A stretch of 38,900 nt of DNA from Actinomycetota bacterium (lineage in GTDB: Bacteria; Actinomycetota; Thermoleophilia; Gaiellales; Gaiellaceae). The notes under the pieces are model-generated. The model was not told where the DNA came from, did no database searches, and saw nothing but the letters and a program-made list of their open reading frames with translations. Every line of letters starts with the position of its first letter. Within the stretch, counting starts at the first letter, position 1. Location: contig JACDCN010000001.1 in the NCBI GenBank assembly GCA_013817555.1, forward strand, positions 1 to 38,900, read 5' to 3'. Positions 21,203 to 38,684 of this stretch are shown here, piece by piece. Position numbers and translations under genes: made by a program.

Positions 21203-23632
21203 CTAGCCGACACCGAGATTCTTTCCGCCATGCCTGCCACGTCTGGATGAACTCGAGCGGCCAGCTCGCTTCTGAAGATCGCGCAAGACCACGCTGCCCA
21301 TCTCACGTCCGTCGAGGTTAAAGTGGACATGGATCGGAGGAACCGCGTCAGTAGTTCTGGTTGAAGACGCAAGGGGCGATCCCACGGCAAACCCGAACGC
21401 GCTTGTATGCGATCCGCTTCTGATGCCAAGGTTCCGCCGTCGGAGTTCTTCAGCCTGCTCCTGCGTGAGATTCAAACCCTTGAGAAGCTGCTGCGTCGAG
21501 CGGATGCCGCCGCGGGTGAACTCACCACCGATGTCGGATTCCTTGGAGCCCTCATTCAGCGCAGCGGCGATGTCGTTGAACATCTGCAGAATCGACGACC
21601 GGACTTCCTTGCCCACAGCCCCGAACTGACCCGCGAGCACCCTGGCGATTCCTGCGAGCTCGGAGCGAGTCTTGCCGGTATCGAGTGCCGTTCCTTTGAG
21701 CTGATCACGTAGAGAACCGAGACGCCGCTGGAGTGCCTGCGTACTCGGGGTCCGCTGGTCGCCCTCACGCGTGAGACCGATCGCCTCGAACTGCCTACCC
21801 TGCCGCTGCTGTCGCTGGAGTTGCCGCTGCTGTTGCTGGAGTCGGTTTCGCTCCTGAGCCAGATCAAAAAGCTGACGCTCGAGCTCGACCGTTCTTCCTT
21901 CGACGTCGACCTGCGCTCTGAGTGCCCGCTCCTGAGCAGCGATCGCCCGGAGATCGTCTTGCAAACCCGCCGTAGCCTCCGCGCGGTCACGTCGCAAGCC
22001 AAGAGTCTCCATCAGCTTGTCGAACTCCTCACGCTGCTTCTCAGCAGCGGTCTTGGCCGTTCGCGTGACGACAGCAGCAACTTTCGCCACCTGCGTGATC
22101 TGTCTAGCCTCCCGCGACCTGGACTCGATGACCTTAGTGACAGACTTGACCTGTCTAGCCCCGGTCGTGTCGTCCTCTGCTTCTTTCTCGAGCGCACGCC
22201 GACGATTGGCTGCTGCCCCTTCCTCGCGCTGCCCCGGAAGTTCGACACCTACTGCGGCGACGACCTTCTTCCCGTTCAGCGCGTCGAGCTCGCCGGCGAA
22301 AGAGCGTAGGTTTTCTCGCGCCACATTGATCTGATCGGACACGCCCTTGAAGCTGTCTCCGATAAAGGGGAGATGTGAGGCGGCATCAGCAACGAGAGAC
22401 AGACCACCAAGGAAGTTGTCGAGCGCCTTCACGATGATCGACACGCTGCGAGTGAAGACCTCGGCGAGCACCCGCACGATGTCGCTCATCTTCTCGATGA
22501 CGGGGATCGTGATCCTGAAAGCAGCCGGGATCACCTTCTCGAAGAGAAAGACGATCGTGGGCCGCGCCACTGTCCATATGGCAGCGAGCGATTCACCGAG
22601 GTTGGAGAGAATGTTCCGAAGGTTGCCGCTGTTGGCGTCGAAGATCTCTATGACGCTTGCCCACATGTTCTGAATGACCTGTACGACCTCGCGCACGACC
22701 GGAAAGACGTGCTGGCGAAGCGGCTCGAGAATCGAGGAGCTGATCCGCTGCAACTCGGGAAGCCTGCTGGTGAACGCATCGACGAGAGAGCTAAGAGCCG
22801 GACCGACAGCAGCGCTGATCCGCTGAACGCCCTGCTCGATCTCGGGGATGAAGTTGGCGAACGATCCCAGGACTCGCGCCAGTGGTTCAGCCACAGCCCC
22901 GACGAGGTTCCCGAATGCATTGCGGAACGCCTCACGGAGCTTCGTTAGTTGCCCCGGCAAGGTATCGCCGAGTGCCTTGGCCGACCCTCCGACCTGCGAC
23001 TCGACCTCCCGCAGAATGAGTTTCTGCGCGTCGAGCATTCGGTTCGTCTCGACGAGCGCCTTGATCGAATCGCGCTGCTTCTCCGTGAAGGTCACGCCGG
23101 CGCGAGCCAGCGCGGTCATGCCCCGCACAGGATCATTCAGCGCCTTGCCGAGCTGCTTGGCGGTCGTGTCGATGGCACCGAATCCTGCAACCGAAAGATC
23201 GACCGCAGCCTTCGTCGCCCGGTCGAAGACCTGATTGCCCTGACCGAGCTCGTTCCGCACATTCTTGAAGGTGAGGAGCAAGTTCGAGCCAGAGGCGACA
23301 AGTTCGTCGTCGATGCCGGAAAGGTTCTGTATCGCTCCCGCAAGACGGGTCACGTCCGAGGCTGTGACATTCGCGATCCCGCCCGTTGACTTGATGGCCG
23401 CATTGGTCTGCGCGGCAACCTTCTGCTGCTCAGAGAACTCGGCTATCCCCGCACGAAGCGCACCCGATACAGCGTTGATGCCGGCGCGAACACCCTCGAA
23501 GATGAACGCCGATTTGATGACTGAGCCAGCACCGATCGAGAAGCGCTGTGTGGCATTCGTCGAGCTCCGAAACGCGCGTAGAAGATCGCGCTCGTCACCG
23601 ATGATCTTTACGGTGAGCGTTCTGTCAGCCAC
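21203..23632 (-). CDS. Tape measure protein (809 aa)
   Basis: It has a long alpha-helical composition, TMP-like N-terminal motifs (...NAAIKSTGGIANVTASDVTRLAGAIQNLSGIDDE...LLLTFKNV...), a Q/R-rich coiled coil, and the expected position after the chaperone genes. Confidence 0.9.
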   Translation of the reverse strand: MADRTLTVKIIGDERDLLRAFRSSTNATQRFSIGAGSVIKSAFIFEGVRAGINAVSGALRAGIAEFSEQQKVAAQTNAAIKSTGGIANVTASDVTRLAGAIQNLSGIDDELVASGSNLLLTFKNVRNELGQGNQVFDRATKAAVDLSVAGFGAIDTTAKQLGKALNDPVRGMTALARAGVTFTEKQRDSIKALVETNRMLDAQKLILREVESQVGGSAKALGDTLPGQLTKLREAFRNAFGNLVGAVAEPLARVLGSFANFIPEIEQGVQRISAAVGPALSSLVDAFTSRLPELQRISSSILEPLRQHVFPVVREVVQVIQNMWASVIEIFDANSGNLRNILSNLGESLAAIWTVARPTIVFLFEKVIPAAFRITIPVIEKMSDIVRVLAEVFTRSVSIIVKALDNFLGGLSLVADAASHLPFIGDSFKGVSDQINVARENLRSFAGELDALNGKKVVAAVGVELPGQREEGAAANRRRALEKEAEDDTTGARQVKSVTKVIESRSREARQITQVAKVAAVVTRTAKTAAEKQREEFDKLMETLGLRRDRAEATAGLQDDLRAIAAQERALRAQVDVEGRTVELERQLFDLAQERNRLQQQQRQLQRQQRQGRQFEAIGLTREGDQRTPSTQALQRRLGSLRDQLKGTALDTGKTRSELAGIARVLAGQFGAVGKEVRSSILQMFNDIAAALNEGSKESDIGGEFTRGGIRSTQQLLKGLNLTQEQAEELRRRNLGIRSGSHTSAFGFAVGSPLASSTRTTDAVPPIHVHFNLDGREMGSVVLRDLQKRAGRSSSSRRGRHGGKNLGVG

Positions 23633-24028
23633 TCAGACACGCTCCCAATGACGGCCCATGTCCTGGAGAAGATCCTCCACCGCAGCAAGCACGCGGGGAT
23701 GGTTCGCCTCGAGCGCCGGCTCCATCGGACGCTCCAAGAGAAGACCAGCGAGGTTTGGTCGACGCCTACCACCTCGTCTTGACCCTCGTTCTCGCGGTGC
23801 GACGTACACACTCGAACGCGTCACCCCGATACGCATCCGCGACCAGGGAAGCCCGATCCTCGGAATGGCGGAACTCGCCCTACTCTCTGCATCGCTCCTG
23901 ACTGGCTCGGCAGCTTCCCGCAGCGTCTTCCTGAGGTCGCGGCTTAGCTGCTTGTCGACGCCCGCGAAAGCTCGCTGGAGCTCGCGCAGTCCTTCGACGC
24001 GCACAATGCGTTCTGAGGCTGCTGGCAT
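23633..24028 (-). CDS. HK97 gp10-like tail-completion family protein
   Basis: IVRVEGLRELQRAFAGVDKQLSRDLRKTLREAAEPV... and ...LLLERPMEPALEANHPRVL match the gp10-family pattern. Its ATG directly follows the stop of the chaperone -1 frame. Confidence 0.65.
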   Translation of the reverse strand: MPAASERIVRVEGLRELQRAFAGVDKQLSRDLRKTLREAAEPVRSDAESRASSAIPRIGLPWSRMRIGVTRSSVYVAPRERGSRRGGRRRPNLAGLLLERPMEPALEANHPRVLAAVEDLLQDMGRHWERV

Positions 24029-25117: not shown

Positions 25118-25360
25118 CTAACGACTGAGGAGCCTTTCGGCTCCTCGTTGGTCTGGTGTATGTGGGCTGGCTAACCAGCCCTGGGGAAACTCGAAGCTCC
25201 CTGGTAAGAGCGCGGGCTCGACCCGCTCGAGGAGCACGATGTCTCCACGTCTGACCGCACGATGCTCGGCGTTCGGAGCGATCTCCGCGATGAACTCGGT
25301 GCCCGGTTCATGGCCCCGGTAGCGTCTGACTCCGATGACGCGGTAGTGCCCGTGCGTCAT
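25118..25360 (-). CDS. Hypothetical protein (80 aa)
   Basis: ATG 25360 forms an ATGA overlap with the glycosyltransferase stop. Confidence 0.5.
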   Translation of the reverse strand: MTHGHYRVIGVRRYRGHEPGTEFIAEIAPNAEHRAVRRGDIVLLERVEPALLPGSFEFPQGWLASPHTPDQRGAERLLSR

Positions 25361-26121
25361 GCCGCCACCAGTTCGCGGGCGTAGTGGGAGGACATCTCGT
25401 CGAGCGCATCGGCGGGGAAGACTTCGGCTAGCGTCTCGAACGGGTCACCGAAACTCTCTCCGCGATGCCGCGCCTCGATCGTGCCGTAGGGATTGAGCTG
25501 GATGCCGGGGCTCTTCCAGTCGACGATCTGGCGGGGGTCGATGTCCCGATGCTCTACGCGGAGCCGAGGGTGAGCCTTTCGCAGATTCAGCAGCATCGAG
25601 GTATCACACGCTCGCTGGCGATCCTCGTCCGCAGGGCGGAAGTTGCGGTGGGCCATGACCTGACGCGGATACACCCGGATTCCGCAGCCGCCTTCGTAGT
25701 CGAGGAAGCGGGTTGTCATCTCCCTGCCGTCCTCCCGCACGAACGAGATGCGCTGGAAGCCGAGCACGGTGTTAGCTCCGGGAAGGTCGAGGAAGATCTG
25801 GTGATCAACCCAGTCATCCGAGCCACAGGGGGCAACGTAGTCAGCCGGTCGCGGGTTGTAGCGAGGGTCGCACGCGAGCTGGATCCCATCGTTGAAGCGC
25901 CGCGACACGAAGTGGTTATCCCGCTCGATCGTCCCGAACCCGAAGACGTCATCTGTTCGTTCTCGCAGCTCCTCGAGGTTGTCGCGGTCGGCAATGACCA
26001 CAGCCGTCGCTTCGATACCTTCTTCGCTCAGCGCGTCGCACGTTCGTCGCAACTGGCGCAGACAGATCGCCGCAAGCGGGAGCCGCCCGTGTACGGGCAC
26101 ACAGAACCAGAGAGATGGCAT
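25357..26121 (-). CDS. GT-A fold / family-2-like glycosyltransferase
   Basis: ORF 25357..26160 trimmed to ATG 26121 (ATGA overlap). The N-terminus is WFCVPVHGRLPLAAICLRQL, and CGSDDW is DxD-like. Confidence 0.7.
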   Translation of the reverse strand: MPSLWFCVPVHGRLPLAAICLRQLRRTCDALSEEGIEATAVVIADRDNLEELRERTDDVFGFGTIERDNHFVSRRFNDGIQLACDPRYNPRPADYVAPCGSDDWVDHQIFLDLPGANTVLGFQRISFVREDGREMTTRFLDYEGGCGIRVYPRQVMAHRNFRPADEDRQRACDTSMLLNLRKAHPRLRVEHRDIDPRQIVDWKSPGIQLNPYGTIEARHRGESFGDPFETLAEVFPADALDEMSSHYARELVAA

Positions 26122-26867
26122 CAGGCAGCAACCGCCACGGGGAACGCCTGCTTCCACCAATCGCTGTGGATCAGAACATGAAGCTGGCCCGCTTCGCCCA
26201 GCCGTTCGGCCACCACATCGAACGGCTGCGACCAGCGCCCGCTCGAATCCGAGAGGTATTCGCCACGCGAGAGCCAGTTCGGGTCGTACTCGAGACCATA
26301 GGCGCGACGGGAGATCGGCTTCAGCGGGCAGATGACCCCTTCGTGCTCGAGTAGTCGATCAAGCTTCCCGTAAGCCGGTCGGGGCGACTCCGTAAACAGT
26401 TCGTCGTTGACGAAGTGGGAGGAGTGGCAGAGGTTGTCTCCGTGAGCCACCGCACCGACCACACGCACACCCGCCGAGCGTAGTTCGGAGAGCGCTTCGG
26501 TCAGGATCTCGTGAGGATCACGACGCTGCCGCAACGCCTCAGCGATTGCGTTGACATGGATTCCGACCTCGTGTCCTAGCTCCTCGAAGCGGGGGGCGTA
26601 GGCAAGCATTTCCTCGCCCCAGTAGTGCGAGTCGTGGAGCAGGAAGTAGGTCGAGGCGTAGCCGTGCTCGAACTCCCACTCGGCGAAGGCAAGCGCGGTC
26701 TCGAAGGAGCCGAGGTTGTCGTCGATGTCGTGCCGAAGCCCGATCACATTGGTCCCCGTGTCGCCCTTGAAGACGTCACGCATCGGCACCACGCGGTCGG
26801 CCCGAGACAAAAGCGCCGAGTCGAGCTCGACGAGGTCAGCAGCAAGAAATGGCTCCTTGGCTCTCAC
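26121..26867 (-). CDS. Polysaccharide deacetylase (CE4/NodB-like)
   Basis: RHDIDD (TFDD-like motif 1), ELGHEVGIHV (H-x-x-x-H motif 2) and VLIHSDWW (LxH motif 5). GTG 26867 forms a GTGA overlap. Confidence 0.7.
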   Translation of the reverse strand: MRAKEPFLAADLVELDSALLSRADRVVPMRDVFKGDTGTNVIGLRHDIDDNLGSFETALAFAEWEFEHGYASTYFLLHDSHYWGEEMLAYAPRFEELGHEVGIHVNAIAEALRQRRDPHEILTEALSELRSAGVRVVGAVAHGDNLCHSSHFVNDELFTESPRPAYGKLDRLLEHEGVICPLKPISRRAYGLEYDPNWLSRGEYLSDSSGRWSQPFDVVAERLGEAGQLHVLIHSDWWKQAFPVAVAA

Positions 26868-27352
26868 TTCTTCAGCACCAACCAGAAGACGCCAGCCGTG
26901 CGAGCGTAGAGCGAGTCCGTCCAGCCGGCGGGGACGGTGTAAGTCCCTAGCTGCTGGTTCGTGACTGTGACCGTAACGGCCTTCTCAGCGAGCGCACACC
27001 AAAGACCGAGACTCTTGAGCGACCGCTGCTCGGTTTCGCCGGTAAATGTGTCGACAGAGACGACGTCCCATTTCACGTCATCGAGCCAGCGCTCAGCGAA
27101 CTCCCAGGCGTCGTCCTCGAAGAATCCCCACTCCTCGGGGTAGAGCTCCTGCATCTCGCTCAGGCGTTCGCCGTCCGAGTCGACGCAGGTTGTCAGCAAG
27201 CCCGCCTCGGCGAAGTGGACGGCATCGTTATGTCCGAGGAACGCTGCCGAGAACAGACACAAGCCCGTCTCGCAACCATCGAGCAGGTATGTCGGATACG
27301 GACGAGCTTGCATCGCGACATGCTCGAGCGTGGGATAGGTCACAGTTCCCAT
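26864..27352 (-). CDS. Rossmann-type methyltransferase-like protein (tentative)
   Basis: YLLDGCETG (motif-I-like), TCVDSD (motif II), DAWEFA and WDVVSVDTF (motif IV-like). The call is weak without a profile search. Confidence 0.4.
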   Translation of the reverse strand: MGTVTYPTLEHVAMQARPYPTYLLDGCETGLCLFSAAFLGHNDAVHFAEAGLLTTCVDSDGERLSEMQELYPEEWGFFEDDAWEFAERWLDDVKWDVVSVDTFTGETEQRSLKSLGLWCALAEKAVTVTVTNQQLGTYTVPAGWTDSLYARTAGVFWLVLKK

Positions 27353-27981
27353 GCGACCTCCATCGGCTCAAAGCCAAGCTTCGTCTTGAAGTAACGCAAG
27401 CCATCCGTACCGGAGTCAGCGCGGTTGTAAACGAAGTACCCACCGAGCGAAGCCTGCTTCTCAACCGCTCCCTGAAAGAGCAGGTACATGACGTCCTTTG
27501 CGAGATGGTCGCCATGACCGAGGATGCTCGATACCAACGCCAGGTCGCCGACGCGGTAGAGCCAGAGATACGCGGCCAGCGTCCCTCGCACGTCGAGCAC
27601 GCCGTAGGTACGGATCGCATGCCGCGGGCACTCGTACTCGGGAAGCGTGAGGTAGTGATTCCGTTCCCGGTAGCCCCCGCTCATCGGACGGCCTTGACGC
27701 TCTCCGAGCGATGTGTTGATCGCGTAGATGTGCTCGTCGAAGTCCTCTCGTGCGATCTCGGCGAAGTGGTAGCCGAAACGCTCAGCGCGGTCGGCACGCT
27801 TGCGGGCTGTACGGTGCTCTTCCCGCCAGGAATCAACGCTAGAGGGCACAGGAAGCACGGAGCACGTCTCGTAGCCCTTGGACAACTGCTTGTGTAGGGG
27901 GAACGCGAACGGGGCGCAGGACGCGAAGTCGCAGGCGGTCTCTAGGGAGATCGCCACGCCGGTCATCGTCTCGGTCGTCAT
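27340..27981 (-). CDS. FemAB/CelD-type GNAT-fold acyl- or aminoacyl-transferase-like protein
   Basis: The pattern ...RKRADRAERFGYHFAEI...AYLWLYRVGDLALVSSILGH...DVMYLLF...GLRYFKTKLGFEP resembles Acetyltransf_6/FemAB-like proteins. ATG 27981 forms an ATGA overlap. Confidence 0.55.
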   Translation of the reverse strand: MTTETMTGVAISLETACDFASCAPFAFPLHKQLSKGYETCSVLPVPSSVDSWREEHRTARKRADRAERFGYHFAEIAREDFDEHIYAINTSLGERQGRPMSGGYRERNHYLTLPEYECPRHAIRTYGVLDVRGTLAAYLWLYRVGDLALVSSILGHGDHLAKDVMYLLFQGAVEKQASLGGYFVYNRADSGTDGLRYFKTKLGFEPMEVAWEL

Positions 27982-28433
27982 GAGCGGGCCGGGATCACCA
28001 GGAATCGCCAGACGACGCCAATGTGAACATTGGCTCCATCAATGGTGGGCACGAGCACGAACCCGGATTCGCTGACGAGCTCGACATCAGAAGCGTGCCC
28101 GCCAATCGTCGGATCGTCGTAGAGAGCTTGAACGAGACAGAGATCATCCTCGTCGTCTTTGAGAGCGAGAAGAACGTCTTGGTTCGCCTCATGGTCGGTC
28201 GGCGAGACGCGAGCCCGGACGTTGAGGAAGTAGCCACCCATGACCTCGGCTGCGACCTCTCCGAATGATGCGGTGTCATCGTCTCGCGACGGGTCCGCGG
28301 GGAAGATGTCGATTGAGGGAGTGGTGGGGTTGAGCACCATGCGCGGCTCCACCTGAAAGTCCCAACTGGAACCCGCAACGGCCTGGCTGATCTGATCCGC
28401 CATCTCGTCCATGATCGTTCTGAGAGCACTCAA
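27978..28433 (-). CDS. Hypothetical virion protein in the neck position (151 aa)
   Basis: It follows the gp6-like adaptor. The start is uncertain (TTG 28433 or ATG 28412). Confidence 0.45.
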   Translation of the reverse strand: MSALRTIMDEMADQISQAVAGSSWDFQVEPRMVLNPTTPSIDIFPADPSRDDDTASFGEVAAEVMGGYFLNVRARVSPTDHEANQDVLLALKDDEDDLCLVQALYDDPTIGGHASDVELVSESGFVLVPTIDGANVHIGVVWRFLVIPARS

Positions 28434-28452: not shown

Positions 28453-29064
28453 TCAAGCTAGCCCCCAGCGCTCTTTTAACGGCGCAAGCATGAAGGCGTA
28501 CTTGTCCCAGGAGTTACGGGCGAGATGGGTGGACCCAAACTCAGAGCCGATGCCCGCAAGACCGAGAGGCACTTCCTGGAGGAACCACCACTCAGCCGCC
28601 CGCTGGAGGTTCACCTGCACGACCAGAGCGGGCGGTGAGGCATAAGGCTCCACGAGATCAAGCTCCATGTCGATCTCGAACGCCGCCGCCTCGATGACTC
28701 GCCTGAGCGACTGCCACCTCTGGCTCGCGTTCACCTTCAGGATCCGGGCCAGTTCCTCCACGGTCGCATAGGCCGCTCGACCGGCGACGTTCTGCACTGG
28801 AAGAGTCGGCTGCTCCTCGTCGCCGCTCAGGTCCCGGAAGACGAGTCGATACCAGAGCTCGAGCGTGTCGGAAGCGTTCTCCGTCGTGAGCGAACGCGAA
28901 GCCGGAAACTCGGGATCGGCATCGACGGGAGAGATCGTGATCGTGTCGATGACGTTCCACGGTCCAGCTTCGAGCGCTGCCTCCTCGACGTCGATCTCCG
29001 TCCAGGGGTTGCCGTCGTAACGCGGGGCTGGGGTATATCCGAGGAAGGTGATGACCTGGCTCAC
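28453..29064 (-). CDS. Head-tail connector/adaptor (gp6-like) with an extra N-terminal domain
   Basis: The C-terminal half YATVEELARILKVNASQRWQSLRRVIEAAAFEIDMELD... matches the gp6-like adaptor pattern. The N-terminal 95 aa or so form a beta-rich extra domain. GTG 29064 forms a GTGA overlap. Confidence 0.65.
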   Translation of the reverse strand: MSQVITFLGYTPAPRYDGNPWTEIDVEEAALEAGPWNVIDTITISPVDADPEFPASRSLTTENASDTLELWYRLVFRDLSGDEEQPTLPVQNVAGRAAYATVEELARILKVNASQRWQSLRRVIEAAAFEIDMELDLVEPYASPPALVVQVNLQRAAEWWFLQEVPLGLAGIGSEFGSTHLARNSWDKYAFMLAPLKERWGLA

Positions 29065-31178
29065 GAGAGCACCGGATCCTCTGCGTTCTGTATGCGTCCG
29101 ATCGTTATCACCTCGTCAGAGAGATTCCCGCCGGCTTGCTGCTCGGCGTGCTCGATGTAGCCGACCGTGATCGGTCGGTTCGCGATGTGGCCCAGGTTGC
29201 CGTAGGCCAGGAAAGGTGCAGGCATCGGCCCGAGGGTGACCGCATCGCGCGAAGGCGTAGGTGCAGATGCCGTCGCGGTAGCAGCCCCAGGAAAGACCCT
29301 GATCGAGACAAGGGGGATTCCAGCACTCGCGGTAGCCGACGCTGGCTGAGCGAAGACGGTGGCACTGCCAGGAGTGGTAGCGGTGACCCCAGGAGTCGGA
29401 GCGTTCGTGCTCGCATTGGCAGAACCGGGGAAGACCCTGATTTCCGGTATGGGCGAGAGGCCGGAGCCTGTCCCTGCGGCTGCACTAGGTAGAACCCGAA
29501 CCTCGAGAGCGGGGGCCGGTGCGCTTGCGTCTGCGCTTGCGGCAGGGGAAGCGACAGTGTCGTCCACCCGTCGAGCCGGTACAGGAGCAGACGACGTTCC
29601 GCTGGACGCGCCTGGGAAAAGGGTGAGCTTCGGAAGTGGCGCAGGGCCGGAAGCAGTCGCCGAAGCCGCAGGCGAGATGACCGTGCGATCTGCAGTTGTC
29701 GAGAGCGCAGGAACCGGAGCGCTTGCGTTCGCGAGCGCCGATGCTGGAGCAACCCTGACCCCTGGAACAGGAACAGGTCCCGAGCCTGTCGCACTCGCAG
29801 CACCGGGGGCCACGGTGACCCTTGGGAGCGGAGCCGGCGCAGAGGCGGTCGCCGATGCTGCTGGAGCAGCAACCGTTCCACCAACCGACGACGAGATACT
29901 AGGAATAGGAGCGCTCGCATTGGCGATTCCGGCTGCCGGAGAGACCCTGACCTCTGGAACTGACGTAGGCCCGGAAGCGGTGCCTGTGCTCGATGCGGGA
30001 AGGACACGAACCTGGGGAACCGGGCTGGGTGCTGAAGCCGTAGCAGACCCCGCAGGAACGGCAACCGTGTCATCCGTACGGAGACTCGGGACAGGGCCGC
30101 TCGCAGTCGCAGAAGCGCTCCCAGGGGCCACGGTGACCTTCGGGAGCGGTATCGGTGTAGAGCCTGTCGCACTCCCAGCTGTGGGAAGAACCGTGATCTT
30201 CGGAAGCGGGAGTGGAGCGCTTCCCGTGGCGCTTGCCGCTGGAGCGACAACGGTGTCGCTGACACGAACGACAGGAATCGGCGCAGAGGACGTGGCTGAA
30301 GATGCGGCAGGAGCAACTGTGACCTTCGGAAGAGGGATAGCCCCAGAGCCAGTCGCGCTTGCAGCGGCTGGAGAGACCCGAACCCCTGGAACGGGAATCG
30401 GCCCTGAGCCTGTCGCACTTGCAGCCCCAGCAGGGGCCACCGTGACCTTGGGAAGTGGGATCGGCGCAGAAGCCGTCCCAGAGGCCACAGGCGTGACGAC
30501 GGTGGCATTCGTCGCGATGACGAGCGTGGGTATTGGTGCACTTGCCGTTGCGCTGGCAGCAGCAGGGAGAACCGTGACCTTTGGAACCGGGACGGCAGCC
30601 GAAGCTGTGGCGCTTGCAGAGAGCGGAGCAACAAGAATGTCCGCAGCCGAGACACCGTTGGACGCGGTAGCCGCAGCCGCTGCAGGAGCCACTCTGACCG
30701 CAGGAACAGGTGACGGGCCTGAGCCCGTCGCAGATGCTGCAGCAGGAAGAACCCGTACTCCAGGAACTGCAAGCGGAGCCGAGGCGGTTGCACTGGCGGC
30801 GACAGCAATGATCGTGTCATTGGTGCGAAGGGTCGGAGTCGGTCCCGATGCTGTCGTGCTGGCCGCAGCAGGGGCAACAGTGACTTTCGGAAGCGGGAGA
30901 GGAGCGGAACCATTAGCGCTCGAAGCCGCTGGAAGAATCGTGACCTTCGGAACAGGAAGCGACGCAGAACCAGTCCCACTTGAAGCCGCAGGAGCAATGG
31001 TGACCCTCGGAACCGGAACCGCTGCGCTTCCAGTGGCGCTCGCGGCGTTCGGAACAACGATGGTGACGTTGACCGGGCCTGCAGTAGTCGGTACCAGGCC
31101 GCCGAGGAAGCGCGGTCGAGGATCAACACGAATCGGCCTCTCACGAAGCCGTCCCGCGTAAAGAAGACGAGAGGCCAC
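29061..31178 (-). CDS. Tandem-repeat A/P/S/T/V/G-rich protein (705 aa), candidate virion fibre or decoration protein
   Basis: GGGAGG RBS lies 8 nt before GTG 31178, and the stop is coupled to the adaptor start. There are about 30 units such as VTVAPAASSATGSGPIPLPK, with unique N-terminal (about 40 aa) and C-terminal (about 65 aa) ends. Confidence 0.75.
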   Translation of the reverse strand: MASRLLYAGRLRERPIRVDPRPRFLGGLVPTTAGPVNVTIVVPNAASATGSAAVPVPRVTIAPAASSGTGSASLPVPKVTILPAASSANGSAPLPLPKVTVAPAAASTTASGPTPTLRTNDTIIAVAASATASAPLAVPGVRVLPAAASATGSGPSPVPAVRVAPAAAAATASNGVSAADILVAPLSASATASAAVPVPKVTVLPAAASATASAPIPTLVIATNATVVTPVASGTASAPIPLPKVTVAPAGAASATGSGPIPVPGVRVSPAAASATGSGAIPLPKVTVAPAASSATSSAPIPVVRVSDTVVAPAASATGSAPLPLPKITVLPTAGSATGSTPIPLPKVTVAPGSASATASGPVPSLRTDDTVAVPAGSATASAPSPVPQVRVLPASSTGTASGPTSVPEVRVSPAAGIANASAPIPSISSSVGGTVAAPAASATASAPAPLPRVTVAPGAASATGSGPVPVPGVRVAPASALANASAPVPALSTTADRTVISPAASATASGPAPLPKLTLFPGASSGTSSAPVPARRVDDTVASPAASADASAPAPALEVRVLPSAAAGTGSGLSPIPEIRVFPGSANASTNAPTPGVTATTPGSATVFAQPASATASAGIPLVSIRVFPGAATATASAPTPSRDAVTLGPMPAPFLAYGNLGHIANRPITVGYIEHAEQQAGGNLSDEVITIGRIQNAEDPVLS
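29260..31060 (-). repeat. Degenerate coding tandem-repeat array with a period of about 57-63 bp
   Basis: GTGACCTT-type landmarks recur about every 60 bp. No stop codons occur in three of the six frames (ORFs 29061..31178, 29108..31180 and 29359..31161). Confidence 0.8.
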
Positions 31179-31180
31179 AC

Positions 31181-31933
31181 TTACAACCTCCCGCTATCCC
31201 AACCCACGGGCACACGGGGTGCTTTCAAGATGTCGGGGATGACAGCAGAGGCAACCTCCGGAGGTTTCAACGCGACCACGAGATGCGCCTTGTACGAAAC
31301 AACTGCCTTCGTGTAAGTCGTGGCCGTAAATGCACCCGCAGTCGCCTTCTCTCCCGTGATAAGCCCGAGCCAGCCGCCGTTACCCGAGGCGAAGGCGTCG
31401 TCGTAGCGTTCGGTGACACTCGTCAGGTCGGCGTTCGTATGTGCCGACATCTCGGCGGTGCCGCCTGCAAGATCCGGCTTCGCGTGGGCGATGAAGACCG
31501 CGATCAGGCACTCACCTACCGAGGTCGTGCCTCCCGTGGCCGAGCCCGTCCCGTCGTCCACAGTCTCCGAGGATGCAATCGTCGTGTCCCAGGGATTGCC
31601 GGTCGCAATGCAGCCCGAGAAGGCAACGCGGTAGGCCCCGATGTGGTTGCCGGGATCGTTCGTGATCGGATCAGCTAGACCGGTCGCCCAGCGCCGCCAA
31701 TACACGGTCAGCCGGGTACGGAGCAAAGCATCGGTCGCATGAGGAGCGGAAACGGGAGAGCCTGTTACCTCGACGAATCCGCCCGTCGTCGTCAGCGATA
31801 CCGCCTCGTCCATCGACTCGCAGACGAGGAACTCGATGTCGTCGGTAGCTAGACCGGCTGGGGCGGCATTGACGGTGAGCGTTCCGATGGATTCCAGCAG
31901 CGTTCCAGCCGCACGAAAAGCTGGTACGGCCAC
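31181..31933 (-). CDS. Hypothetical virion-type protein (250 aa)
   Basis: GTG 31933. It has a beta-rich composition. The start is somewhat uncertain because GGAGG abuts the GTG. Confidence 0.55.
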   Translation of the reverse strand: MAVPAFRAAGTLLESIGTLTVNAAPAGLATDDIEFLVCESMDEAVSLTTTGGFVEVTGSPVSAPHATDALLRTRLTVYWRRWATGLADPITNDPGNHIGAYRVAFSGCIATGNPWDTTIASSETVDDGTGSATGGTTSVGECLIAVFIAHAKPDLAGGTAEMSAHTNADLTSVTERYDDAFASGNGGWLGLITGEKATAGAFTATTYTKAVVSYKAHLVVALKPPEVASAVIPDILKAPRVPVGWDSGRL

Positions 31934-32505: not shown

Positions 32506-33021
32506 TTACACTCTCACCACTCTGATAAAGCCAGGACGTCGGTTTCCTGCACCACCTGCACCGGCGTAAACGCTCATCGCGTTAGCGGCGCTCCGAGTAG
32601 CCCTGATCGAATACGTGCGAGAGCCAGAGGCCGGAATCATGTCATCGCTTACGGCATGGATAAACCCTGAAATCCCGAAGCTGGAGGCAACGATGTATAC
32701 CTCGGCGAGATTGCCTATAGAAGCTCCGTCCTCGTAGAGGTGCACTGACATCGTGTCTCCTGCGTTATTCCCGGCAAAGGTACAAGCCATGAACTCCACG
32801 CGAATAGGAGTCACTCCATCAGCCGTGAATGCAGGAGCAGTAACGATCGTCGTTGCGGTCGTTACTGAAACCTCGGCCGTGAACTCGGCGTAAGCCAGTT
32901 CGAATCCAGGCAAGATCGAGGACGAGAGCTTCTTCGTTGCGCCGGAAGAAGCGATGACAAGCTGATCCGTCGCCGCAAGCGTGGCGGCTGCCGTCAATGC
33001 GCTGATCTTTGAGTCGGCCAC
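32506..33021 (-). CDS. Fibre-like protein (171 aa) with a tail-fibre-type N-terminal motif
   Basis: KISALTAAATLAATDQLVIASSGATKKLS resembles the conserved N-terminal motif of many phage fibre proteins. GTG 33021 shares a base with the upstream TAG. Confidence 0.55.
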   Translation of the reverse strand: MADSKISALTAAATLAATDQLVIASSGATKKLSSSILPGFELAYAEFTAEVSVTTATTIVTAPAFTADGVTPIRVEFMACTFAGNNAGDTMSVHLYEDGASIGNLAEVYIVASSFGISGFIHAVSDDMIPASGSRTYSIRATRSAANAMSVYAGAGGAGNRRPGFIRVVRV

Positions 33022-34080: not shown

Positions 34081-35334
34081 CTAGCTCGCGGTCGTAATCA
34101 TCGCGAAGGAGCCGTCGTCCACGACGGCAGCCTCGAACGCTCCGATCAGACCGACCTCGACGCCACCGATCGCCGGCTCGACGACCCGGAGCTCGACCGG
34201 AGCACCAGCCGTCTCAGCGACGAGCAGGCCGTCGTTGTCGCCAACCACGACGACACCGGCGTCCATGCCGCGGGACACGACGACGTTGAGCGGGCCAACT
34301 CCCTGTGCGGACACGGACAGGAACTGCGTGAACGCGTCCGAAGTGAGCCCGAGCAGGTAGCCGTAGCGGTCCGGGGCCATGTAGAGCGTGTCAGCCAGCC
34401 GACCTGAGTTGGCGAACACCTCTGCGTAGCCAGCACCGATCGCCGTCATGAACTGCGCGAACGTCGGCGTCGGGCCGATCGGCGCGGCGATGTTGTTCGA
34501 GAACGCCGAGCCCTGAAGCACCTGAGCCGCGTCCTGCTCCGTCTTCAGCGCGTAGTCGGCTGCGACGAGACGGAACCACAGGTCGAGCGCGTTCGGCGTC
34601 GACCAGTTGATCGCCTGCCATGACAGGTCACCGCCACCGAGGTACGTGGAAGCGCTCTTCGTGACCATGTCGATGACCATTCCGGTGTTGCCAGCCTCCG
34701 TCTTCTGAGTCGCCTGAACGGCCACGACGGGAGGCGTGGTGATGACCGGGTAGGTCAAGACGCCCCGCTCGAGCGAAGCACGCATTGCGCTCTCCACAAT
34801 CGGACGGGACGAGTCGATGATCTGGAAGATTTCCGCGATGTGCTGCGGGGGGATCAGGCCGGCGACGTTGGACGACAGCGTGTTGGCCGGGACTCGCTTG
34901 AGGAGCTGCAGCCGCTCCTTCGCACGCTGCAATTCCATCGGGTCACCGAGCTGCATGGCGATCTTGCCGACCTCACGGCCCTGGCCGGAGAGGATGACGT
35001 CGCGGGCATACGCAGCCATCGTGCGGTAGATGACCTGGTCGCCTTCGACATCGATGCCATCCTGCGTCCCGGCAAGCGTCCTACGGATCGCCTTCGACGC
35101 TTCGATCGCTAGCCGATTCTTCTCGACAGAATCGGAGAGGTTCTTGATCTCCACGTCGAGGTCAGTGGCTCGCTCGCGGTACATCGTGACCTGGGTGTTT
35201 TCCGCTTCGGAAAGCACCTTGTCATCACGAGTCTCAACAGCGGCGAGCAGGTTTTCATGCAACTGCTGGTTGACGTCTCGCTCGTCGAGGAGACGTGAGA
35301 GCCGCAGTTCGCTCTGTGTAGTTGGTGCGCTCAT
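34081..35334 (-). CDS. Major capsid protein, HK97 family
   Basis: 417 aa. An N-terminal coiled-coil delta-domain-like 100 aa or so is followed by an HK97-like body. It follows the prohead protease. Confidence 0.9.
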   Translation of the reverse strand: MSAPTTQSELRLSRLLDERDVNQQLHENLLAAVETRDDKVLSEAENTQVTMYRERATDLDVEIKNLSDSVEKNRLAIEASKAIRRTLAGTQDGIDVEGDQVIYRTMAAYARDVILSGQGREVGKIAMQLGDPMELQRAKERLQLLKRVPANTLSSNVAGLIPPQHIAEIFQIIDSSRPIVESAMRASLERGVLTYPVITTPPVVAVQATQKTEAGNTGMVIDMVTKSASTYLGGGDLSWQAINWSTPNALDLWFRLVAADYALKTEQDAAQVLQGSAFSNNIAAPIGPTPTFAQFMTAIGAGYAEVFANSGRLADTLYMAPDRYGYLLGLTSDAFTQFLSVSAQGVGPLNVVVSRGMDAGVVVVGDNDGLLVAETAGAPVELRVVEPAIGGVEVGLIGAFEAAVVDDGSFAMITTAS

Positions 35335-35338
35335 GCGC

Positions 35339-36079
35339 TTATTCCTCCGAAGTTGGCGTTTCCGTCGGGTGGCGGGTGCCGTCTTCGGGGGTGCCGGTCT
35401 CAGCCGGGGTGTCCGTTTCTGCGGGGTGCGCTTGGTATCGCTGCGGTAGACGAATGCCGAGACGTCGGCAGCGTTCGATCATCTCGGGATCAGGCTCGAC
35501 GGGAAGAAGTTCCTCGTCGAGCATGGCTGACTCGCGGATTGCGAGAACTTGTGCGCCGGAGTAGGCGGGCTCGCGGCAAAGCGCGATGCCTACCAAGTGC
35601 GCCTTCACGCGCCGGACGATGCCGTCGCGGTTGCGTACGGACTTCTTCTCGACGGCCTCGAGCGAGATGCCGCCGAATACGCCCTCGCGCACGAGCATGA
35701 GTGCCTTGTCGCCGTCGGGCGTCTCGTGCAGCTTGAAGGATCCGTACAACCCGTCCTCACGCTCAAGCAGCGCCTTGCCGTGTCCGACGATGCCGGCGAT
35801 ACCCGCCTGGTGCTCGACGTTGACGAGCACGCGATTCGCGGCGCTCGACTGACCCTCGAACGCACCAGGCGACCACTCCTCGGTATACGGCATGCCTTTA
35901 GCAACGCCGCCAAGACCGTCGTTGTGGGTGATGCGTTCGCCGTACGGAACGACCCGCACGTCAATGGTGCGGCCGTCACCTTCCGACATCTCAGCGGCGT
36001 ATGCCCTACGAATAAGGCCGCTTTCGCGGCCCTGGTCTTCACTCTCGACGTTGTCGAGTTCTGTCTCCAGCGTGCTCAT
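35339..36079 (-). CDS. HK97-family prohead protease (S78-like)
   Basis: Contains ...IDVRVVPYGE... and GHGKALLEREDGLYGSFKL. ATG 36079 forms an ATGA overlap with the portal stop. The C-terminal tail is P/T/E-rich. Confidence 0.88.
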   Translation of the reverse strand: MSTLETELDNVESEDQGRESGLIRRAYAAEMSEGDGRTIDVRVVPYGERITHNDGLGGVAKGMPYTEEWSPGAFEGQSSAANRVLVNVEHQAGIAGIVGHGKALLEREDGLYGSFKLHETPDGDKALMLVREGVFGGISLEAVEKKSVRNRDGIVRRVKAHLVGIALCREPAYSGAQVLAIRESAMLDEELLPVEPDPEMIERCRRLGIRLPQRYQAHPAETDTPAETGTPEDGTRHPTETPTSEE

Positions 36080-37215
36080 CCGGTACCTCCGATTACTGTC
36101 AACGGCCGCGCCGGTTGTTGCGCGGGTGACGCCTTCGCGACCTGGGAAAGTTGAGGGTCGTTGTCGTCCGATAGATCGCTGAGCTCGGCGAACGTGTCAG
36201 CGGCGTCGAATGCGACCCATTGACCGCGCGGAAGCATCTGCGCGCTGAACGCGTTGGCGATGCGAGTCGCCGTCGTCCGAAGCTCGAAGCGCCACCACAT
36301 CTCGCCGAGCGCGGCAGGGTTCTGATACGTGAGCCCGCCCTGCAGCGCCATATTCAAGAGCACCGAGGGAACGCCGAAAGCGGTCGCCAACGCCCGCGCA
36401 TTGAACTCCTGCGTGTCAAGGAGCGAGAGATCGGCCGGGTTGAACGACAGGGGTACGAAGTCGAGCTCCGGTGGAAGAACCGGCGGGAGCCCACCGCGGC
36501 TCGTGGTGGCTGCGCCCCACTGTGCCTGTAGCGCTTCAGCCTGCTCCTTCGACAGCTTGCGCTCCGACTTGAGAACCGCCTGCGGGATGCCGCCCGTGTT
36601 CACGGTCATCGACTGGTTCCCGGCTGCGAGCAACCCCCAAGCCGTCTGCGCGTACGCACGAAGCGCGGAGCTTCCGTGCGCCGCATTCGACGGGTTGCGG
36701 TCGATCTGCACGACGCGGCGGGGGTCTAGGATCTCTTCGCCGAGCTTCCACTCGCGCGCACCGTCCACCATGCGAATCTCCACGCCGCTCGAGTCGAGAA
36801 CGGTCCACGTTCGCGCGAAGCCGTCAGCGTAGAAGTCGGTGATGTATTGGCAAGAGAAGCCCCAGCCGTAGAGCTGCGCGACGATCGCGTGTAGGGCGTC
36901 ACCGATGCCGTTCGGATACCAGTTCGGATCCGGGCTCGACACCCACGCCGGTTCGGGTGCTCCGTGGAACTCGAGCGGCATCGAGGCGATCTGCTGCGCG
37001 TTCAACTGAATGCAGCGGTTGGCGACCCACACGCGGTCTGTGAGCGCTGCGTTGCCGGGGAACCATGCTCCGGTCGTCATCCCCTGCTCGGCGAAGAAGT
37101 TGGGGATGACCGAGTTGAACAGATCCATACGCGTGCCCTCGAGCGGTTCGGGCTCCACGCGCTTTAGAAGTTCCTCTCGAGCCGACACCAGATCCTCGAG
37201 GTAGGTGCGGTTCAA
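36076..37215 (-). CDS. Portal protein, HK97 family
   Basis: Portal-like sequence (...QLNAQQIASMPLEF..., GGIPQAVLKSERKLSKEQAEALQAQW). The start is probably TTG 37215 (TTGA overlap with the terminase stop) or ATG 37128. The ORF-track start 37431 lies inside the terminase gene. Confidence 0.88.
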   Translation of the reverse strand: MNRTYLEDLVSAREELLKRVEPEPLEGTRMDLFNSVIPNFFAEQGMTTGAWFPGNAALTDRVWVANRCIQLNAQQIASMPLEFHGAPEPAWVSSPDPNWYPNGIGDALHAIVAQLYGWGFSCQYITDFYADGFARTWTVLDSSGVEIRMVDGAREWKLGEEILDPRRVVQIDRNPSNAAHGSSALRAYAQTAWGLLAAGNQSMTVNTGGIPQAVLKSERKLSKEQAEALQAQWGAATTSRGGLPPVLPPELDFVPLSFNPADLSLLDTQEFNARALATAFGVPSVLLNMALQGGLTYQNPAALGEMWWRFELRTTATRIANAFSAQMLPRGQWVAFDAADTFAELSDLSDDNDPQLSQVAKASPAQQPARPLTVIGGTG

Positions 37216-38684
37216 AAGATCGCCACCTCTCCGACGTCGTTCTCGGTCGCCGACCAGAGCGCGAGCGTGGCAGCGACGAGTGGCGAAATGTTCACGGTCG
37301 ACTTGGTGCGTGACCACGCCCAGCGATCGACGAGCGGACGAGCCTTGGCACCGCGGATCGCAGAGTCGAGCTCCGGCTGCCCCAGGTGCCTGAGCGTCTT
37401 CTCGCCCACGCAGTCGACGAAGAGACCGCACGCCTTGCCGTAGTCGCCCGAGTCCATTCGCTTGACCTTGATCCCGGCCTCGTCGAGACGATTGGCGATG
37501 GCTGCACTGGGCCCGAAACCGTCGCAGACCACTTCGGCGATCTCGTGCGTTCGGTACAGGTCGATCAGCCGATCGACGAGCCAGCCGGTGCCCGAGCGGC
37601 AGGCGATCACTTCGACCATCATCTTGCCCGTCTCGCTCCTACCGGCAGCGACGATCGAGGAGTGACGTTCCGGCGAAACATCGCAGGAAACGCACACCGG
37701 ATCAATGAGCACTTCGTCGGGATCGAGAACGTCCGCCCACAGCTCGGGAGAGATGAGAACATCGGCGGAACCGTCCGTCGCCGGCCAGTCACCCACGCCC
37801 AGAAGCTCGACAGCGAACGTGCGAGGATCCAGCGAGCGCTGCTCTCGCGCCATGTGCTCCTCGGAGATGCGGATGCCTAGACCTGGGTTCGACGAGCGCC
37901 AGAGCTCGACGTCGAGTGCCTGCGCTTCCGAAAGATCGTCGGGGTGCTCTCCCTCGACTGAAAACTCGATGTATCCCAGCGACTCATCGTCTCCCCGCAG
38001 CCCGCGTTCACGAATACGAGCCCATACGATCCCGTGGTCGTGGATCTCTTGATCGACGGCCGAACCGGTGTAAACGAGTTGCGGGCCACGCGGAGCCTTG
38101 GACGCGCGCAGCGTCGGCATCATCGCGCCGTGCGATGCGCCGTTGATGATCATGGCCTCGTCCAAATTCAGGTAGTCGACGCCGGCGAAACCACGGAGAC
38201 CTGACTTCGTACGAGTGACGAAGCGCATGCGGGTTCCGTCGGGCATGTAGATCCCCTCTTGCCCATGCGAGCGGCGGATCTGCTTGACCTTGAGGTCAGC
38301 GCTCTCGACCAGTTGCTCGAGACGTAGGAAATGCTCCTCCGAGGTCTTGAACTCATGGGCCGAGTGAACTCCCAGCTTCTCGCCGGTGATGCCGGCCAGC
38401 AGCGCGAGCTCTCGCACCTCGAGGACGACGCCCTTCCCGTTCTGACGGGTGACGTTGATCCCGAACTCGAAGTGCAGCCAGCGCTCATTCGCTCCGACCG
38501 ACATGAGATCGCGTAGCGCCTCGGCTTGCCAGTCGTCGAGAATCATCCCAGCCGCTGCCGCGAGCTCGATCGCCTCGTCTGCAAGGGTCGACGTCCAGGC
38601 ATGAACCGCGTGGATGCGCGGGCCGGTCGCGAGAGCTACCACCGGCGCGACTGCTTCCTCGCCTGCTGGGTTGCTCTGTTGCAA
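37212..38684 (-). CDS. terL: Terminase large subunit
   Basis: 490-aa ORF with a terminase-like ATPase and nuclease layout (DDWQAEALRDLM, GKGVVLE, VDYLNLDEAM). It lies between the HNH and portal genes. The start is TTG 38684 or GTG 38642. Confidence 0.9.
   Translation of the reverse strand: MQQSNPAGEEAVAPVVALATGPRIHAVHAWTSTLADEAIELAAAAGMILDDWQAEALRDLMSVGANERWLHFEFGINVTRQNGKGVVLEVRELALLAGITGEKLGVHSAHEFKTSEEHFLRLEQLVESADLKVKQIRRSHGQEGIYMPDGTRMRFVTRTKSGLRGFAGVDYLNLDEAMIINGASHGAMMPTLRASKAPRGPQLVYTGSAVDQEIHDHGIVWARIRERGLRGDDESLGYIEFSVEGEHPDDLSEAQALDVELWRSSNPGLGIRISEEHMAREQRSLDPRTFAVELLGVGDWPATDGSADVLISPELWADVLDPDEVLIDPVCVSCDVSPERHSSIVAAGRSETGKMMVEVIACRSGTGWLVDRLIDLYRTHEIAEVVCDGFGPSAAIANRLDEAGIKVKRMDSGDYGKACGLFVDCVGEKTLRHLGQPELDSAIRGAKARPLVDRWAWSRTKSTVNISPLVAATLALWSATENDVGEVAIF

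Follow-up and report, generated by a model that had tools for sequence, protein, structure and literature searches.

What does a long and strictly periodic protein, rich in alanine, proline, serine, valine and threonine, do in the head module of a phage genome? The question is raised by a stretch of 38,900 nucleotides (positions 1 to 38,900 of contig JACDCN010000001.1, GenBank assembly GCA_013817555.1; the whole stretch is called the window below), which is read as the temperate, siphovirus-like genome of an uncultivated phage, probably one of actinobacteria. On its minus strand, at 29061..31178, lies a gene for a protein of 705 amino acids (aa), most of which consists of degenerate copies of a 20-residue unit. 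The reading preferred here, given roughly an even chance of being correct, is that this repeat protein is a structural accessory protein that forms a stalk or fibre on the virion surface at the head or neck. The family to which it belongs is uncharacterised, the kind of protein (the fibrous and stalk proteins of phages) is already known, and the function of the window protein is a prediction.

Architecture of the repeat gene and its product

The gene and its parts are as follows.

29061..31178, minus strand: repeat-protein gene, GTG start and TGA stop, 705 aa (from the list of open reading frames; frame backed by homologues and by substitutions at the codon positions)
31068..31178, minus strand: N-terminal module, aa 1-37 (MASRLLYAGRLRERPIRVDPRPRFLGGLVPTTAGPVN), basic
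29244..31067, minus strand: array of 28-29 units of 20-24 aa each, aa 38-645 (from the unit model, unit spacings, autocorrelation and unit profile)
29688..30257, minus strand: three regular super-repeats in series, aa 308-369, 370-433 and 434-497, each of 20+20+22/24 aa
29061..29243, minus strand: C-terminal module, aa 646-705, and the stop codon, with short G-x-I mini-repeats (…GHIANRPITVGYIEH…ITIGRIQN…)
31187..31192, minus strand: Shine-Dalgarno motif GGGAGG, 8 nt before the GTG at 31178 and 6 nt before an alternative GTG at 31180 (read from the sequence)
29061..29064, minus strand: GTGA overlap of the stop codon of the repeat gene with the start codon of the downstream gene (…TCGTGAGCC…; read from the sequence)

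The three-part protein with about 30 degenerate units that the preliminary description had outlined is recovered. A hidden Markov model (HMM) of the unit, built from 25 clean units of the window protein, finds 28-29 units between residues 41 and 644, and the segments at aa 1-37 and about 646-705 are unique. The composition of the protein is biased (A 22%, P 15%, S 12%, V 11%, T 10%, G 7.5%), and its self-identity is 0.315 at a lag of 20 residues (z = 15.9) and 0.285 at a lag of 62 (z = 13.5), against 0.121±0.012 in shuffled sequences; the highest value at any lag among 2000 residue shuffles is 0.179. Successive units are spaced by 20 residues (19 times), 21, 22 (four times), 24 (three times) or 26. 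The unit profile reads V-[TR]-V-[AL]-P-A-A-A-S-A-T-[AG]-S-[AG]-P-[IV]-P-[VL]-P-[KR], with Ser13 present in 25/25 clean units. Three units of 20+20+22/24 aa make up a super-repeat of 62-64 aa, and the signal at lag 62 bears out the three-unit periodicity noted earlier. By eye, no hydrophobic signal sequence or signal peptide is seen at the N-terminus. With its small terminal modules, the window protein is a bare stalk. The GTGA overlap with the downstream 203-aa gene, which had been reported before and is present at 29061..29064, is read as translational coupling of the two genes.

Age of the array

The array appears to be old and maintained by selection on the peptide, as had been proposed, because the DNA of its units has diverged, codon sharing between units is at the random level and few tandem copies are detectable in the DNA. 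Mean identity between units is 49% at the protein level and 52% at the nucleotide level, with a nucleotide maximum of 72%. For an amino acid that two units have in common, the codons agree 29.2% of the time (random codon choice predicts 0.20-0.41, depending on the residue), and TRF run on the array DNA reports only 2.3 copies of a 60-nt unit. Synonymous sites are thus saturated between units, and the motif is retained.

Comparison with orthologues from related phages, introduced below, gives the same picture. Substitutions at codon positions 1, 2 and 3 number 224/214/392 against the orthologue in L022 (50% aa identity) and 70/57/184 against that of the close relative L026 (83% aa identity), a pattern from which the repeat gene is judged to be real and under purifying selection. 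The gaps in the protein alignment of the window and L022 are 20, 22 and 40 aa long, and whole units have therefore been gained or lost between orthologues; the comparison of repeat numbers among related phages that the preliminary description had suggested thus yields differences by whole units.

A rare family with a shared unit

The family is unnamed and is defined here by the proteins P0001-P0055. In a search of 1.84 billion cluster representatives, 51 proteins match at E ≤ 1e-3 and 16 at 1e-10, phmmer E-values within the family go down to 1e-56, and the unit HMM matches 244 units in 41 proteins. The family consensus, [VLI]-[RT]-[VIL]-x-P-[PA]-A-A-[TS]-A-[TS]-A-S-[AG]-P-x-P-x-x-x at a spacing of about 20 aa, fits the window protein. 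Among 129 homologous units, position 1 is V, L or I in 71% and position 3 is aliphatic in 87%, and A7, A8, A10, A12, S13 and P17 are conserved across the family. Lags of 20, 42 and 62-64 recur in most members, and the 62-64-aa lag of the window protein is also found in P0003, P0004, P0007, P0008, P0011 and the 637-aa orthologue of L022 (L022_637).

The number of repeats varies among relatives (313-705 aa), and several of the larger relatives are modular. In P0015 (1815 aa), P0016, P0017 and P0019, arrays of 3-12 units join globular domains; the domains joined by unit arrays in large relatives include GHL15 (PF14885) and Laminin_G_3 (PF13385), the latter also carried by P0013 and P0014. An N-domain of 230 aa is common to P0004 and P0006 at 36% identity, although their phages differ. 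The N-terminal motif of the window protein recurs, duplicated, in P0039 at 58% identity. An identical 54-aa fragment of the C-terminal module of the window protein constitutes P0018. In the phage that encodes P0004 (L017), which has a Mu-type portal, a sortase gene (PF04203; L017:16180-16695) lies about 3 kb downstream of the repeat gene.

Taken from its matches, the unit is a rare module that occurs in several phage lineages, and the family is one without a described structure. Other searches came back empty: tblastn of the repeat protein against 50,697 phage records returns nothing, probably due to the low-complexity filter, megablast with 19 kb of the window returns nothing, and no loci related to the repeat protein were found in viral contigs.

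Position in the head module

The repeat gene is preceded by the capsid gene (34081-35334) and followed by the neck and tail genes, in the following gene order.

37212-38684, minus strand: TerL
36076-37431, minus strand: portal
35339-36079, minus strand: protease
34081-35334, minus strand: capsid protein
between the capsid gene and the repeat gene, minus strand: six small or medium-sized genes without assigned function
31181..31933, minus strand: upstream 250-aa protein, a separate gene within the same interval
28453..29064, minus strand: 203-aa protein, with the GTGA overlap with the repeat gene; FN3/Ig-like beta-sandwich at aa 1-95 and helical C-terminal half at aa ~100-203 (AF2 model, mean predicted local distance difference test, pLDDT, 88)
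27978-28433, minus strand: 151-aa gene
25357-27981, minus strand: putative enzyme cassette of four genes
23633-24028, minus strand: Neck1/tail-completion
21203-23632, minus strand: tape measure
16523-16981, minus strand: collagen-like fibre, 152 aa (collagen Pfam and PHROG models match)
13911-15602, minus strand: pectate-lyase-like protein, 563 aa (phrog_27797, E = 3e-50)
12724-13965, minus strand: beta-helix protein, 413 aa (weak match to right-handed beta-helix PF13229, E = 4.5e-4, below the Pfam cut-off)
4847-5776, minus strand: integrase

The window phage is considered temperate because of the integrase gene, and the 563-aa and 413-aa proteins past the tape measure are probably depolymerase tail spikes. 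Its capsid protein is 26% identical to those of the cluster O (Corndog) mycobacteriophages, and TerL is less than 40% identical to actinophage terminases; only this TerL similarity points to actinophages. Scans of GTDB representative genomes with the single capsid protein, and then with a capsid alignment, detected no prophage relatives.

Sister phages of the window are metagenome contigs whose capsid proteins are 47-73% identical to that of the window and which share its operon. In L016 (P0006, to which a further N-domain is attached), L022 (637 aa) and L023 (651 aa), a true orthologue of the repeat gene stands immediately upstream of the homologue of the 203-aa gene, and in L026 and L027 this position is held by 3′ fragments of genes closely related to it, as far as these short contigs reach. 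Other repeat proteins occupy the slot in L009 (20-aa units), L011 (22-aa units) and L010 (23-aa units), and L002 and L015 have no repeat protein there. Beyond the sisters, the repeat gene of L018/L019 follows GT2, GT17 and epimerase genes and is flanked by an HK97-type capsid gene and PF24163 ('HCP'); that of L021 stands between SU10_MCP and SU10_adaptor; and that of L020 adjoins a portal gene of the SU10 type, in a module where the capsid gene is followed by a GT1 gene. The gene is accordingly encoded in the head module in the window, L016, L018/L019, L020, L021, L022 and L023. A location that had been called unusual is therefore typical of the family, since the same slot is used in sister phages (L016, L022, L023, L026 and L027) and the head modules of unrelated lineages carry the gene as well.

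The proteins that share this slot also share features of their ends. Mini-repeats of the form G-[RSH]-I, like those at the C-terminus of the window protein, terminate the slot-mates of L009, L010, L016 (P0006), L022 and L023, and also P0010; in the close relatives L026 and L027 the C-terminal module is 21 aa shorter than in the window. The N-terminal motif of the window protein recurs, more weakly than in P0039, in the slot-mate of L009. The L009 protein (L009:11056-11997) consists of 12 exact 20-aa units (RTTTSSASLPLTLTVATAGT; 3% Pro) with this similar N-terminal motif and a G-x-I-like end; that of L011 (L011:8193-8957) has 22-aa units (DPGAYTVTGxxATLARGLFL) and ends in a short G-x-I-like motif, as does that of L010 (L010:2310-3926), where 23-aa units follow a globular N-domain.

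Other genes in and around the slot are varied. In L022 (3790-5577) and L016 (5897-8818), the interval from capsid to adaptor holds polysaccharide-lyase/SWM-repeat, hydrolase-like and tail-protein-like proteins, and cargo of the adhesin or depolymerase kind appears to accumulate there, as in a hot spot. Nuclease genes of the homing type are inserted in the structural operon: a gene read by eye as an HNH nuclease (L009:11997-12506) lies between the repeat gene and the adaptor-like gene of L009, and an Endonuclease VII gene (PF02945; L023:2664-3014) follows the capsid gene of L023. Two paralogous adaptor-like genes (L003:2219-2851 and L003:6070-6702) flank a cluster with a 582-aa fibre-like gene in L003. 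In L002, a 1092-aa collagen-like protein (L002:8338-11616), nearly all GXY triplets (GATGVTGATGATGVT…) with a globular C-terminal domain, is encoded after the enzyme cassette.

A proposed stalk or fibre on the virion

In the preferred reading, about 29 copies of the conserved 20-residue unit, grouped in threes as 62-64-residue super-repeats, would build a long stalk or fibre. Each unit would comprise two short strand-like segments with fixed prolines as punctuation: the first has an aliphatic i/i+2 pattern (V-x-V), and in the second Ala alternates with Ser/Thr (A-S-A-T-A-S-A), which would give one face of small residues and one of hydroxyls. By stacking or pairing, the units may form a rod of regular build, probably rich in beta structure and possibly oligomeric. 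The specific functions would fall to the short terminal modules: one of them, most likely the conserved G-x-I module at the C-terminus, would dock at the head-neck junction, where the FN3-like domain of the coupled 203-aa protein is a candidate docking site, and the rest of the protein would project outward, its reach set by the array. In relatives, distal globular modules would bind or cut glycans. The role of the family is probably the presentation of binding or enzymatic modules to glycans of the host surface or the environment, because the stalk module spaces Laminin_G_3 and GHL15 domains in the larger relatives.

Several observations favour this reading. The gene lies between the capsid gene and the neck and tail genes, the slot-mates in L009, L010 and L011 are fibre-like proteins whose repeats equal or approach those of the window protein in period and whose termini are similar, and the 203-aa protein has an FN3-like domain of the exposed type. 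Strict unit length, the aliphatic i/i+2 pattern, the alternation of Ala with Ser/Thr, a super-repeat that spans lineages and the proline-poor L009 array argue for a regular, probably beta-rich rod rather than a random coil. Because ordinary genes for tail-tip fibres and depolymerases follow the tape measure in the window, the protein is taken to be an accessory and not the main receptor-binding protein. An AF2 prediction of the full protein (monomer, 13-sequence alignment) has a mean pLDDT of 34, with values below 50 for 665/705 residues, and forms four short strands at V-T-V motifs and no solenoid; this model fits either an obligate oligomeric fibre of an orphan family or an extended flexible chain. 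We infer the presence of the protein in virions, its attachment site, fold, oligomeric state and adhesive role from these features together.

A number of points weigh against a virion stalk. Its placement in the particle draws on synteny and translational coupling, both of which are indirect. A mean pLDDT of 34 with hardly any secondary structure is also expected of a disordered chain, and 15% proline is high for regular beta structure. No binding or enzymatic domain is recognisable in the window protein, which has no match in Pfam (E ≤ 0.1), PHROG or NCBIfam, fibre families included. A phmmer search of the PDB with the protein returned only spurious Fab matches (E ≥ 0.0035), and a PDB search with a profile of the super-repeat returned nothing at E ≤ 10, solved fibre shafts included. 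Profile comparison of the L009 unit with the window unit detected no homology. Finally, the 203-aa protein matches no adaptor family by sequence in Pfam, PHROG, NCBIfam or the PDB, so that its identity as an adaptor is unconfirmed and the neck location is a conjecture.

Known phage and viral fibres offer partial parallels to such a stalk. Triple beta-spiral shafts occur in the adenovirus fibre, reovirus sigma1 and PRD1 P5. They, too, are made of tandem pseudo-repeats of about 15-20 residues with alternating aliphatics and fixed Pro/Gly turns, and form a long thin shaft between a small anchor and a distal module, with the number of repeats setting the length. The window protein differs from them in having no sequence similarity to any solved chain, and in its unit of 20 aa with four prolines, Ala/Ser/Thr alternation and a three-unit super-repeat within one chain. 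Head and neck fibres and decoration proteins of phages include the phi29 gp8.5 head fibre, the collagen-like SPP1 gp12, and T4 fibritin and Hoc. Like the repeat protein, these are accessory, non-essential-looking fibrous proteins encoded in the head or neck part of the operon, and the outward, adhesive or stabilising appendage that they form is what is proposed for the window protein. In contrast to it, they are coiled coils, collagen GXY arrays or Ig-like domains, none with a 20-aa unit; homology to them was not detected, and the virion location of the window protein is itself a proposal. The collagen-like fibres of the window (152 aa) and L002 (1092 aa) are likewise low-complexity arrays rich in A, T, G and P in structural operons, with length set by repeat number and small unique flanks. 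Their period, however, is 3 rather than 20, and the collagen models of Pfam and PHROG match them and not the repeat protein, which in a direct collagen test gave no PF01391 match and a period of 20, not the 3 of G-X-Y.

A more specific proposal is that the unit and its three-unit super-repeat represent an undescribed fibre architecture, perhaps a single-chain pseudo-threefold rod with three units per layer, serving as a portable stalk that displays lectin or glycosidase modules from the head-neck junction and whose Ser/Thr face phage enzymes may glycosylate. This elaboration is speculative and rather doubtful.

Alternatives to a virion stalk

One alternative is a flexible, mucin-like spacer: an extended and largely unstructured A/P/S/T chain whose Ser/Thr residues at positions 9, 11 and 13 would be O-glycosylated in the cytoplasm by phage enzymes, producing a glycan brush for shielding or adhesion. 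The core A-[ST]-A-[ST]-A-S-A-P and the overall composition resemble actinobacterial O-glycosylation contexts, among them the O-glycosylated P/T/S/A linkers of actinobacterial glycoside hydrolases and mycobacterial Apa, and the arrays of relatives, like those linkers, connect carbohydrate-binding and hydrolase-like domains. The linkers are, however, short, irregular and secreted, and are modified by secretion-coupled enzymes, whereas the window array is long, strictly periodic and marked by conserved hydrophobics. Pmt-type O-mannosylation is coupled to secretion. Because no signal peptide is seen, O-glycosylation of the kind known from high-GC Gram-positive hosts, as the preliminary description had envisaged, is unlikely to act on the protein, and only phage-encoded cytoplasmic glycosyltransferases could do so.

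Candidates for such enzymes exist: head modules of L018/L019 and L020 contain the glycosyltransferase and epimerase genes listed above, and the conserved cassette of the window has one weakly glycosyltransferase-like member (3bcv, E = 0.012). The cassette is retained equally in L002 and L015, which have no repeat protein, so it is not dedicated to the repeat protein and a specific link between the two is not supported; moreover, the identities of its enzymes are weak. Precedent comes from mycobacteriophages, where Che8 and Rita, of cluster F1, are reported to encode the glycosylation of their major capsid proteins (as cited in PMC11256854), and where gp35-38 of Corndog have been suggested to glycosylate the virion (PMC4351075). 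The window resembles these systems in having enzyme genes inserted in the virion structural operon and a distantly Corndog-like capsid protein. It differs in that the reported glycans are on major capsid proteins and not on a dedicated repeat protein (PMC11256854), in the weak or absent family matches of its cassette, and in the occurrence of that cassette without the repeat gene.

The low pLDDT over most of the chain and the use of arrays as inter-domain linkers in relatives would suit a spacer of this kind. Strict 20-residue spacing, the aliphatic i/i+2 pattern and a super-repeat shared across lineages are unexpected for a disordered linker; the family shows both position-specific hydrophobic conservation and constraint on length, and the L009 slot-mate, with the same period, has only 3% Pro. 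On balance the mucin-like spacer is unlikely, though less so than the alternatives that follow.

A second alternative, distinctly less probable in our estimation than not, keeps the fibre and moves it: the protein would be a side fibre attached to the tail or baseplate, its gene merely lying in a part of the structural operon where the cargo varies. Between their capsid and adaptor genes, sister phages do hold tail-protein-like, hydrolase-like and polysaccharide-lyase genes, and L003, L006 and L015 have fibre genes in or near the region, with N-termini that look tail-fibre-like by eye. The fibre-like N-terminus of the 171-aa protein of the window, described below, also counts for this alternative. 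The repeat gene is, however, consistently adjacent and coupled to the presumed adaptor gene and not to tail-tip genes, and the window has its own set of fibre and depolymerase genes after the tape measure; these points make a tail location quite unlikely. That the protein is instead a non-virion assembly factor, a scaffold or ruler whose repeat number encodes the length of a possibly prolate, Corndog-like head, is very improbable: the capsid protein is distantly related (26%) to those of the prolate-head cluster O phages (PMC4351075) and repeat number does vary among relatives, but fusion of the unit to lectin-like and glycosidase-like domains would make no sense in an internal ruler, the sisters L002 and L015 have similar capsid proteins and no repeat protein, and a protease gene precedes the capsid gene, as usual.

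Reading frame

The region of the repeat gene is open in three frames, as had been pointed out, which raises the question of which one is the gene. The frames are sense 0 (705 codons), sense +1 (690 aa) and one antisense frame (600 aa), and the two alternatives to the annotated frame are as follows.

29108..31180, minus strand: alternative sense +1 open reading frame, 690 aa, rich in R, L, S, F and P, judged a by-product
29359..31161, plus strand: antisense open reading frame, 600 aa, a compositional by-product

Codon statistics by themselves are ambiguous, with negative log-odds in every frame. The GC content of third codon positions is 0.56 in the repeat gene and 0.70-0.82 in its neighbours, except for a 171-aa gene (0.60). 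Within the repeat gene T-ending codons are enriched and GTG and CTG are depleted about threefold, and over 29-31 kb the plus strand has a positive GC skew and a positive AT skew.

By comparative criteria, frame 0, which encodes the A/P/S/T peptide, is the gene, because homologues share this peptide, substitutions are in excess at codon position 3 and the +1 frame is closed in distant members of the family. The peptide is common to 14 word-indexed matches and to the 51 exhaustive HMMER matches. The frame 29108..31180, which the preliminary description had named as a possible contender, thus fails on homologues and on the substitution pattern, and the annotated frame stands. The antisense frame was likewise rejected as a gene: its four stops match the compositional expectation, which a permutation of synonymous codons puts at 3.0±1.2. 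On L026 (L026:13-1476, minus strand) the public gene call is an antisense open reading frame of 487 aa in place of the repeat gene.

Dual coding, in which the +1 frame would also be translated, from the GTG at 31180, into a 690-aa Arg/Leu-rich protein, is hardly credible and the weakest of the alternatives, and it has real observations behind it. The +1 frame has no internal stop in 689 codons where 7.0±2.0 are expected from the codon usage of the gene itself or 10.1±2.7 from that of its neighbours (P = 0.001-0.007), and in no neighbouring gene is such a depletion found. Its GTG comes immediately behind the TAA that ends the upstream gene, with which it is in frame, and shares GGGAGG with the GTG at 31178, the two starts being 6 and 8 nt past the motif. 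L026, a close relative, likewise has this frame open, and the Val codon before a codon starting with A is GTC in 19/20 cases. Against it, the +1 translations of the window and L026 are 63% identical where those of frame 0 are 83% identical, and the +1 frame contains 11-21 stops in seven more distant repeat-family genes (L009, L010, L016, L017, L018, L020 and L021). The +1 product resembles an out-of-frame reading of a GC-rich gene, and much of the depletion is explained by the purine-poor third positions of the coding strand (A 14%, G 26%) and by a preference for C followed by A at codon junctions, which is genome-wide and shared by the neighbouring genes. The +1 frame was consequently rejected as a real gene, poorly conserved as a protein, closed in distant relatives and disfavoured by the substitution pattern, and its openness is regarded as an unexplained by-product.

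Neighbouring genes

The gene coupled to the repeat gene encodes the 203-aa protein. Homologues number 144, all unannotated, and some are stand-alone forms from metagenomes that are only 112 aa long and span the C-terminal half. A homologue lies downstream of the slot gene in L009 (across the inserted HNH gene), L010, L011, L016, L022, L023, L026 and L027. The C-terminal half, of about 105 aa, is helical, and its extreme C-terminus is strongly conserved; together with the 112-aa forms, these features speak for an adaptor. In L002, L003 and L006 the N-terminal half of the homologue does not align with that of the window and looks like a different domain. A Foldseek search with the model gives FN3-like matches only, dominated by the N-domain, and hhalign of the 203-aa protein against the PF24163 protein of L018 gives a probability of 0.2. 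The adjacency reported earlier is correct, and the label of head-tail adaptor is a positional guess, plausible and reasonable, that Pfam, PHROG, the PDB and Foldseek do not confirm.

Upstream of the repeat gene, the 250-aa protein resembles, by eye, a 254-aa protein near the orthologue of L022. Two links between it and the repeat gene were considered and rejected. A split gene, in which the 250-aa protein would be the detached N-domain of P0004, P0006, P0010 and the L010 protein, gave no significant BLASTP match, and for a -1 frameshift fusion of the two genes there is no slippery site, and a TAG six codons ahead of the start, in the frame of the repeats, rules it out. The 171-aa protein (32506-33021) has an N-terminus, MADSKISALTAAATLAATDQLVIASSGATKKL, that we take to be of the type known from phage fibre or spike proteins; no database match was found for it here.

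The first putative enzyme gene is the third one downstream of the repeat gene, not the fifth as previously stated. The four genes of the cassette (W213, W162, W248 and W267) are conserved in all sister loci that reach that far, including those without the repeat gene. Family matches are weak (GNAT-like, E = 0.056; glycosyltransferase 3bcv as given above), and searches of the PDB with W267 and W248 returned one weak glycosyltransferase match and otherwise spurious ones. As read by eye, the motifs of the 248-aa protein suggest a CE4 deacetylase and those of the 162-aa protein a methyltransferase, and the cassette may be a virion- or glycan-modifying set.

Significance

The openness of the repeat gene in several frames misleads gene callers, as the antisense call on L026 illustrates. 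Should the protein be part of the particle, a new repeat architecture would join the small set of known designs of phage fibres and stalks, which comprise coiled coils, collagen, triple beta-helices and beta-spirals, and Ig arrays. The stalk is modular, changes length in steps of whole units and recurs in unrelated phage lineages as a spacer between carbohydrate-binding and hydrolytic domains, which is of interest for the host-range biology of phages and for protein engineering, where such a module may serve as a spacer. The window protein is also a specific candidate for an appendage attached to the head or neck in a group of uncultivated actinophage-like viruses.

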